This document shows positions 63,131 to 64,000 of a stretch of 64,000 bases of DNA, in pieces. Made by a program: the position numbers and the translations under genes. The stretch spans positions 20,936 to 84,935 of the IMG/VR virus record IMGVR_UViG_3300028805_000091, one strand, 5' to 3'. This stretch comes from a virus (Duplodnaviria > Caudoviricetes). The notes under the pieces were generated by a model. The model was not told where the DNA came from. It was given only the letters and a program-made list of their open reading frames with translations, and did not search any database. Each line of letters opens with the position of its first letter. Within the stretch, counting starts at the first letter, position 1.

Positions 63131-63292
63131 ATGAAAGATTCAACTAAAGAAAATTTAGAAATAATAGATACAATACTTAATATAGTTATATCAATAGGAG
63201 CTATAATAGGTTTTATTGTAACATATAAAAGTGGATTTTTTCACAAACTACATAATGTAGTAGCATATTTTCATGAACAAATCAATTTATAA
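63131..63292 (+). CDS. 53-aa single-pass membrane protein (not in the ORF track)
   Basis: MKDSTKENLEIIDTILNIVISIGAIIGFIVTYKSG...EQINL*; its 3' end lies inside the inverted repeat. Confidence 0.45.
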   Translation: MKDSTKENLEIIDTILNIVISIGAIIGFIVTYKSGFFHKLHNVVAYFHEQINL

Positions 63293-63302
63293 AAAAACTA
63301 AC
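63251..63302. repeat. Inverted repeat, left arm (52 bp perfect match to 63949-64000)
   Basis: CATAATGTAG...TTTATAAAAAAACTAAC is the exact reverse complement of the last 52 nt of the window; one mismatch then TTTAAT extends it. Confidence 0.95.
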
Positions 63303-63621
63303 ATTTAATTTGCCTGATACAGAATCTCGCTCATTCGTATATACTACTGGAACAGCATATCTTGGTGAAACAGGTGATGGTTTCATTCCGAATATTACTG
63401 GTACTTTTGGTCAGGTTCCTTATCTGAAGGGAGAAAGTTGGGAATTAGGTGCATTTTCTTCTTATGAAAGTAGAACGAGTGAATTATGGAAAAGAGAAAA
63501 TAATTCAAATTATATGTATTTTATAGATTTTTCAGCTTCTCGGTGTAGTTCAGTATATCAATCAAATAAAACATATGTTCGACCAAAATATATAGTAGTT
63601 AGACCAATTATTAGATATTAA
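63301..63621 (+). pseudogene. Start-less tail-fibre C-terminal cassette A
   Basis: Begins TFNLPD (collar-domain motif) with no upstream start in frame (TGA at 63274-63276); PNITGTFG; F.AS..SSVYQ...V.P...II.Y. Confidence 0.75.
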
Positions 63622-63950
63622 TAATGTATTATATAATATATTACTGTACAAGCAGGAATAACATGATTTACGTCATCTTGATAAACAGAACTAGATAATG
63701 AAGCATTGAAAAAGAAATTATAAGTTAAATTATCAGATTGACCCATTGTCATACCTTGTAAAGCGTTTGCAGCAGATATTTTCCCATCTGTAAAAGCTCC
63801 TGATGAATTACCCCAACCTCTTGAACTACCACCACCAGCATAACCAAAAGTACCTTTAATGTTAGGTAATAAACCATTACTTCTATAACCTAAATTTTGG
63901 TCTGACCACATATAAGGTATAGATATATTAAAATCTGGAATATTAAACGT
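63618..63950 (-). pseudogene. Start-less tail-fibre C-terminal cassette B (convergent with A)
   Basis: Begins TFNIPD at the repeat edge; PNIKGTFG; F.AS..SSVYQ...V.P...II.Y; stop overlaps the stop of cassette A. Confidence 0.75.
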
Positions 63951-64000
63951 TAGTTTTTTTATAAATTGATTTGTTCATGAAAATATGCTACTACATTATG
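63949..64000. repeat. Inverted repeat, right arm (runs to the window end)
   Basis: Reverse complement of 63251-63302; true length unknown because the window ends. Confidence 0.95.

Follow-up and report, generated by a model that had tools for sequence, protein, structure and literature searches.

The end of a large-phage contig very probably marks the silent left edge of a multi-cassette tail-fibre tip shufflon

The window, a stretch of 64,000 nucleotides, corresponds to bases 20936-84935 of an 84,935-bp IMG/VR virus contig, and base 64000 is at the same time the last base of that contig. The contig has 28% GC and a CheckV completeness of 35%, and it carries genes for a portal, a prohead-protease fusion, GroEL and SbcCD, as well as several tail-fibre and tailspike genes in a row. 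The contig covers part of the genome of a large, low-GC, uncultured phage, which is probably lytic and for which a search returned no close cultured phage. ORF statistics over the whole contig favour the standard genetic code. The features at the right end of the window, together with those of a sibling contig (L005), are collected in Table 1.

Table 1. Features at the right end of the window and in the sibling contig L005
Feature	Contig	Position	Strand	Remarks
GTTCTATAAA copies	Window	16235-16244(-), 48662-48671, 50791-50800, 54228-54237, 62573-62582		
GTTCTATAAA, sixth copy	L005	7165-7174		
148-aa fibre-like gene	Window	62631..63077	+	PHROG tail matches; GTTCTATAAA upstream at 62573-62582
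Terminator-like hairpin plus T-run	Window	63100..63123	+	Precedes the 53-aa ORF
53-aa ORF	Window	63131..63292	+	One predicted transmembrane helix; no family match
Proposed recombination site, left boundary	Window	63291..63309	+	Core AACATTTAAT at 63300-63309 = codons T-F-N
Silent tip cassette A	Window	63301..63621	+	106 aa plus stop, open from T-F-N
Silent tip cassette B	Window	63950-63618	-	110 aa plus stop, open from T-F-N, convergent with A
Proposed second site, inverted	Window	63942..63960	-	Core AACGTTTAAT, ACG in place of ACA
Reverse-complement copy of the L flank (of 63251-63290)	Window	63961..64000	-	Runs to the contig end
Sites, direct	L005	4886, 5173, 5490, 5816, 6140, 7565	+	
Sites, inverted	L005	6766, 7101, 8260	-	
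Complete 209-aa fibre gene	L005	7267-7896		Mtd_N + Collar

The 148-aa gene is the last expressed fibre gene ahead of the proposed switch. It amounts essentially to one extra copy of a unit found in the 692-aa fibre at 60390-62468, with 84% DNA identity over 96 nt; the larger protein contains three to four diverged tandem copies of this unit of ~95-108 aa, with periods of 285 and 324 nt. The 148-aa gene has its own motif and terminator and looks like a stub fibre or an adaptor. The window has five copies of the motif, GTTCTATAAA, where chance would give 0.57; every copy reads in the sense direction and lies a short distance upstream of a virion gene. It is probably a late promoter or leader motif of the phage. 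Sixty relatives found through the 148-aa gene contain no array within 10 kb of it.

The hairpin that follows insulates the downstream sequence from the fibre operon. Beyond it lies the 53-aa ORF, which encodes a strongly hydrophobic 19-mer (Kyte-Doolittle 2.3) and whose last 40 nt plus stop form the outer flank, L, of the left site. An inverted repeat then frames the remainder of the window, with arms at 63251-63318 and 63933-64000 that are 94% complementary over 68 nt and perfectly so over 52 nt (63251-63302 and 63949-64000), a length far above chance expectation. The repeat exits the window because base 64000 is the last base of the contig. The first mismatch sets A at 63303 against the complement of G at 63948, so that a Thr codon is ACA in the left arm and ACG in the right one. 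Within each of the other loci examined, all sites agree at that base.

The inner part of the repeat is the 19-mer AAAAAAACTAACRTTTAAT (AAAAAAACTAAC-R-TTTAAT), which is found at two positions of the window only, namely in these arms, and no further copy of the site is present in the window. The dyad within the site is short and imperfect (ATTAA-N3-TTAAT). The sites are asymmetric, with WT.CC conserved on the cassette side and an A/T-rich half-site on the upstream side.

Enclosed by the arms are two cassettes, A and B, which both start with T-F-N-[LI]-P-D, are 37% identical to each other and share 2 nt of their stop codons. An open frame of 107 codons has a chance probability of about 1e-4 at the base composition of the window. 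The frame of the cassettes is interrupted ahead of T-F-N by a TGA at a distance of 9 codons, inside the repeat, and by a TAA at 16 codons, which makes read-through from an upstream gene into A or B impossible here. Recoding of stop codons is ruled out as well, as the ORF statistics of the whole contig fit the standard code. We also considered a -1 frameshift from the 53-aa ORF on an A7 run: by inspection, no canonical slippery heptamer is present, and the product, a membrane peptide joined to a fibre tip, would be senseless.

Neither cassette alone has a Pfam match; both align to residues ~100-209 of full-length members of the fibre family described below, with E values of 1e-11 to 1e-14. A and B are very probably spare receptor-binding tips, silent in the window. 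IMG/VR holds no copy of either elsewhere, and in the protein database none was found fused to the constant half of the fibre by a search that is word-based and hence weak. The preliminary description of this DNA had recognized two divergent fibre C-termini with overlapping stops, both unexpressed, next to the 3' end of a small membrane gene, and an inverted repeat perfect for at least 52 bp that runs off the window; all of these elements are borne out by the measurements above.

An exact search of IMG/VR with the inner repeat retrieved L005, a contig of 8,373 bp. Positions 58414-63309 of the window correspond to L005 1-4896 with 3 mismatches in 4896 nt (99.94% identity), and the homology ceases exactly after 63309, the last base of AACATTTAAT. 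L005 carries nine sites and nine cassettes of 95-121 codons counted from T-F-N to the stop, most of them ending in ...I-K-Y. All cassettes are open, in L005 (9/9) as in the window and in two further contigs, L006 and L021, and with a chance probability of ~1e-4 for each this indicates that selection maintains them. Cassette A shows 61-65% protein identity to two silent L005 cassettes and 78% DNA identity to one, while B is 43% identical to the tip now expressed in L005. The cassettes of the window phage nevertheless differ from the L005 set despite the 99.94% identity of the shared sequence. The two repertoires are therefore different, which is also compatible with exchange between strains.

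The fibre gene ending at T-F-N that the preliminary description had proposed to search for is present in L005. Its 209-aa product matches the Phage Tail Collar family (PF07484) with 83.8 bits against a cut-off of 24, and its relatives of solved structure are long and short tail fibres and the tropism determinant of a Bordetella phage. An AlphaFold monomer of the protein is mediocre (pLDDT 72), and Foldseek matched only its Mtd N-terminal part. The constant half of the gene (L005 7267-7575) ends in ...G-N-S-T-F-N, and its codons 101-103 coincide with the site. Two sites in opposite orientation, at 7101 and 7565, delimit a stretch of 464 bp that contains the start of the gene and also GTTCTATAAA, 93 nt upstream of this start. 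With its own GTTCTATAAA and the gene start located between inverted sites, the constant part constitutes a self-contained expression module within the array, and cassettes flank this module on both sides.

Both borders of the L005 array are dead ends, formed on the left by the 53-aa ORF and on the right by a hairpin and the end of a minus-strand gene. The right flank comprises 113 nt only and is unrelated to L, which occurs once in L005; exact and degenerate searches for this flank elsewhere returned L005 alone. The gene adjoining the right border is represented by its C-terminal 31 codons (8279-8373, minus strand), and the hairpin overlaps its stop. We considered this 31-aa peptide (8279-8371, minus strand) as the helix-turn-helix of an invertase; this is unsupported, the sole marginal match among protein representatives being a repeat protein. 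Should a recombinase gene adjoin the switch at all, it would have to be this one, though no result speaks for that identity.

The right flank of L005 bears on the arrangement at the end of the window, where L is found outside both cassettes. The left joint of the window contig consists of the L flank, AACA and A, and the right joint of the L flank, AACG and B. Different sites have only about 10-19 nt in common, and the L-B joint contains bases specific for L as well as bases specific for B, including the G; the joint must therefore come from real reads and not from a k-mer bridge. Most simply, the sample would have contained molecules in which the A/B segment faces either way beside L, and these could represent one phage that flips back and forth or two fixed forms present together. 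The assembler would have halted after 52 nt of L, on reaching sequence already used in its path, and 63961..64000 would represent the L-B junction of the flipped form rather than a second genomic copy of L. The variable base stays with the cassette, which would place the exchange point in the AAC immediately 5' of it, as far as a single polymorphism can indicate.

Alternatively, the repeat could be a fixed palindrome of the genome, in which a real second copy of the 53-aa gene's end, inverted, follows B on the right and a two-state or frozen segment lies in between. P1-type segments do have long inverted repeats, and the repeat is perfect for 52 nt, with its true length hidden by the contig end. 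We nevertheless regard this arrangement as quite improbable: L005 has a different right flank and a single copy of L, the contig breaks off at the very point at which a path through the assembly graph would run into L again, and L on both sides would keep both cassettes permanently unexpressed. An amplification or assembly fold-back artefact, devoid of any biology, has in its favour that the contig finishes in the reverse complement of its own earlier part. A fold-back would join a sequence to its own reverse complement, whereas the arms here enclose two cassettes that are only 37% identical, which excludes the simple form of such an artefact; moreover, the joint falls exactly at the conserved site used throughout the L005 array. 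We consider this explanation very improbable. An assembly path through a mixed population, already put forward in the preliminary description for the flank shared by both cassettes, remains the best explanation of a contig that ends 52 nt into a repeated flank, and it has gained support from the different right flank of the sibling and from the B-specific ACG at the L-B junction.

The 209-aa protein was searched against 5.8 billion proteins, which yielded 2,735 relatives. In three of these (P0001, P0002 and P0004) residues 1-100 are 100% identical, and the tips are only 31-38% alike; P0003 and P0005 have a constant half that is 97% identical and carry further, different tips. The tip of P0004 is the silent L005 cassette 7101(-) with 100% identity, and that of P0002 the silent cassette 5173(+) with 94%. 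Identical N-terminal halves followed by different tips, two of which correspond to silent cassettes of L005, establish that tips are exchanged exactly at T-F-N. A single inversion between the two sites on either side of the constant module would yield exactly the fusion seen in P0004.

Further loci with sites of this kind were found. Four sites are present in L006, a relative with 70% identity that comes from a sister sample, six in L021, and two each in L022, L053 and L007. One cassette was assembled twice in L006, once behind the constant gene and once behind the tail of another cassette; L005 and L006 are short-read assemblies, and either could be a mosaic of several arrangements. The DNA core AAC-N-TTTAAT is present in all loci examined, lineages of 40% GC included, and the A/T-rich upstream half-site is kept even at non-coding flanks. 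Conservation of both elements goes beyond that of codons and suggests that the site is recognised by a protein. In a metagenome scan with the constant half, the matches listed are mostly distant Collar proteins, with at least four more switch-like loci and no sibling longer than L005 among them.

We conclude that the window very probably ends at the silent left edge of a multi-cassette tail-fibre tip shufflon of a large phage. The anatomy agrees with such a system, with cassettes in both orientations behind the same site, a constant 5' part (seen in L005 only) and alternative fusions. According to the model we propose, the array would consist of short sites, each formed by the AACATTTAAT core with an A/T-rich half-site before it and WT.CC after it, coinciding with the T-F-N codons of the Collar domain. 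Every site would be followed by a promoterless receptor-binding tip of 95-121 codons. One module would supply the late-gene motif and the first 100 codons, i.e. Mtd_N plus most of Collar, of a fibre of ~200 aa. Inversion between oppositely oriented sites would join this module in frame to one tip and leave the remaining tips silent. A and B would then be a convergent two-cassette segment parked at the dead left boundary, next to the terminator and the 53-aa ORF. The tips presumably determine the host range.

The preliminary description had proposed tip switching by inversion in a segment resembling the G segment of Mu. Its core idea is upheld by the fusions at T-F-N and by the array in L005; a simple two-state segment, on the other hand, does not fit a sibling with nine sites. 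That the fusions are made by inversion, and not by another kind of exchange, is likewise our reading of the sequences. The same loci could be a static library, in which inversion is not active and the fusions arise by occasional homologous recombination at T-F-N between co-infecting strains. The differing cassette sets of the window phage and L005 beside 99.94% identical flanks would suit such a library, as would the fact that no recombinase was found. A 10-nt core is, however, too short for efficient homologous exchange, and P0004 is exactly what a single inversion across the constant module would produce. Open silent cassettes in both orientations, combined with a half-site conserved at non-coding flanks, are a signature of site-specific inversion, and L006 and the window each hold two alternative junctions within one assembly. 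On balance, a static library appears improbable.

The constant fibre gene and the recombinase were expected outside the window, and in fact the whole 85-kb contig lacks both. A weak Collar match at contig positions 8947-9030 is spurious, as it lies within an unrelated 169-aa ORF, and the constant gene is also absent from five large related records. We found no gene of the resolvase family (PF00239) or of the integrase family (PF00589) in these 85 kb, which represent ~35% of the genome and end inside the switch. No recombinase was detected beside any of the related loci either. The right flank of L006, for example, holds genes for a pyrimidine-dimer glycosylase and a DUF7487 protein as well as a large structural gene, and no recombinase within 4.8 kb. 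Five of the L005 sites are direct-oriented without evident loss of cassettes, suggesting that the enzyme favours inversion, like members of the Hin/Gin and Rci families. A more specific arrangement is conceivable, if rather doubtful: the 464-bp expression module itself would be mobile, so that the fibre gene flips direction and tip together, the borders would be dead ends, and the recombinase would not be adjacent, being encoded remotely in the ~240-kb genome, provided by the host or of a type not yet recognised.

Mu (Gin) and P1 (Cin) are the classical examples of tail-fibre switching by inversion. The G and C segments of these phages resemble the proposed system in that tips are swapped by inversion and convergent alternative cassettes lie inside the invertible segment; they differ from it in being two-state, with an adjacent serine invertase and a constant part fixed outside. 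In the Gin/Cin/Pin/Min class, a PF00239 invertase is located beside the segment and acts on a 26-bp dyad site with a 2-bp crossover, while the Rci/Rin class combines a PF00589 recombinase next to the array with asymmetric sites. Min, like the L005 lineage, has several crossover sites and alternative tail-fibre 3' ends, to which one constant 5' part is fused by inversion, and many isomers result from in-frame fusion of this one part. Its serine invertase is adjacent, its sites are 26-bp dyads and its constant part lies outside the invertible region, whereas in the present lineage no invertase was found, the core consists of 10 nt of a Collar motif, and the constant module is placed inside the array between inverted sites. 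In the sap system of Campylobacter fetus, it is the segment bearing the promoter that inverts, and the cassettes on its two sides face opposite ways. The placement of the L005 module recalls sap more than Min or Rin, but sap is a bacterial S-layer system with long conserved 5' regions, RecA-dependent and not based on short sites.

Bacterial genomes commonly contain tail-fibre and Collar-domain genes that undergo programmed inversion (PMC9881135). Multi-site tail-fibre inversion is represented by Min of the P1-like plasmid prophage p15B (summarised in PMC6109161), and Rin, found in prophages of Bifidobacterium, is a tyrosine-recombinase shufflon that has five tips and sites of 11 bp (PMC6109161). 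In Rin, as here, C-termini of a phage receptor-binding protein (Rv) are separated by short asymmetric repeats, of 11 bp in that case; every full-length variant is represented in sequences from prophages and virions, and identity between the tips is 6-30%. The Rin array lies between the tyrosine invertase and the constant Rc, in contrast to the dead-end outer flanks of the array described here, which belongs to the Mtd_N+Collar fibre family and has no PF00589 gene in reach. BV01-like phages of Phocaeicola contain a three-cassette tail-fibre shufflon (preprint PMC13596623). This, too, is a multi-cassette shufflon of gut phages that was recognised from rearranged contigs, and there all configurations were seen in reads. 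It has a 10-bp motif, TGGGAGAACT, and an adjacent recombinase, and the phage is temperate; in the present lineage the sibling carries nine cassettes, the motif is another one, and the phage is large and probably lytic. This kind of switch is thus already known from Min, Rin and the BV01-like phages. The departures lie in the fibre family, the Collar T-F-N site, the nine tips of the sibling and the constant module between inverted sites.

Tip shufflons allow one phage genome to address several receptors, and they are one cause why a host range predicted from a single assembly is unreliable. To the known cases this lineage adds up to nine tips on a very small Mtd_N+Collar fibre (~200 aa) of a large phage, a crossover site that coincides with the most conserved motif of the Collar domain, and a layout in which a promoter-bearing constant module would flip inside the array. 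Each of the contigs (the 85-kb one, L005, L006 and L021) terminates within the array or at its edge, which implies that such switches systematically fragment short-read assemblies. The window itself holds silent spare parts, and the more interesting half of the locus lies past the contig end.

The T-F-N site recurs in unrelated lineages, L007 included, and the Collar motif may be a widely used docking point for tip exchange. L007 is an unrelated phage contig of 42% GC with no recombinase within 4 kb of the locus; its region 7350-10153 contains an 837-aa fibre ending in ...G-D-G-N-S|T-F-N-L-P, behind which a single inverted spare tip is found, as in a two-state switch. The contigs L021 (1-3033) and L006 (1-2120), both from sister samples, consist almost entirely of shufflon, and the sites of L021 share longer repeated upstream flanks.
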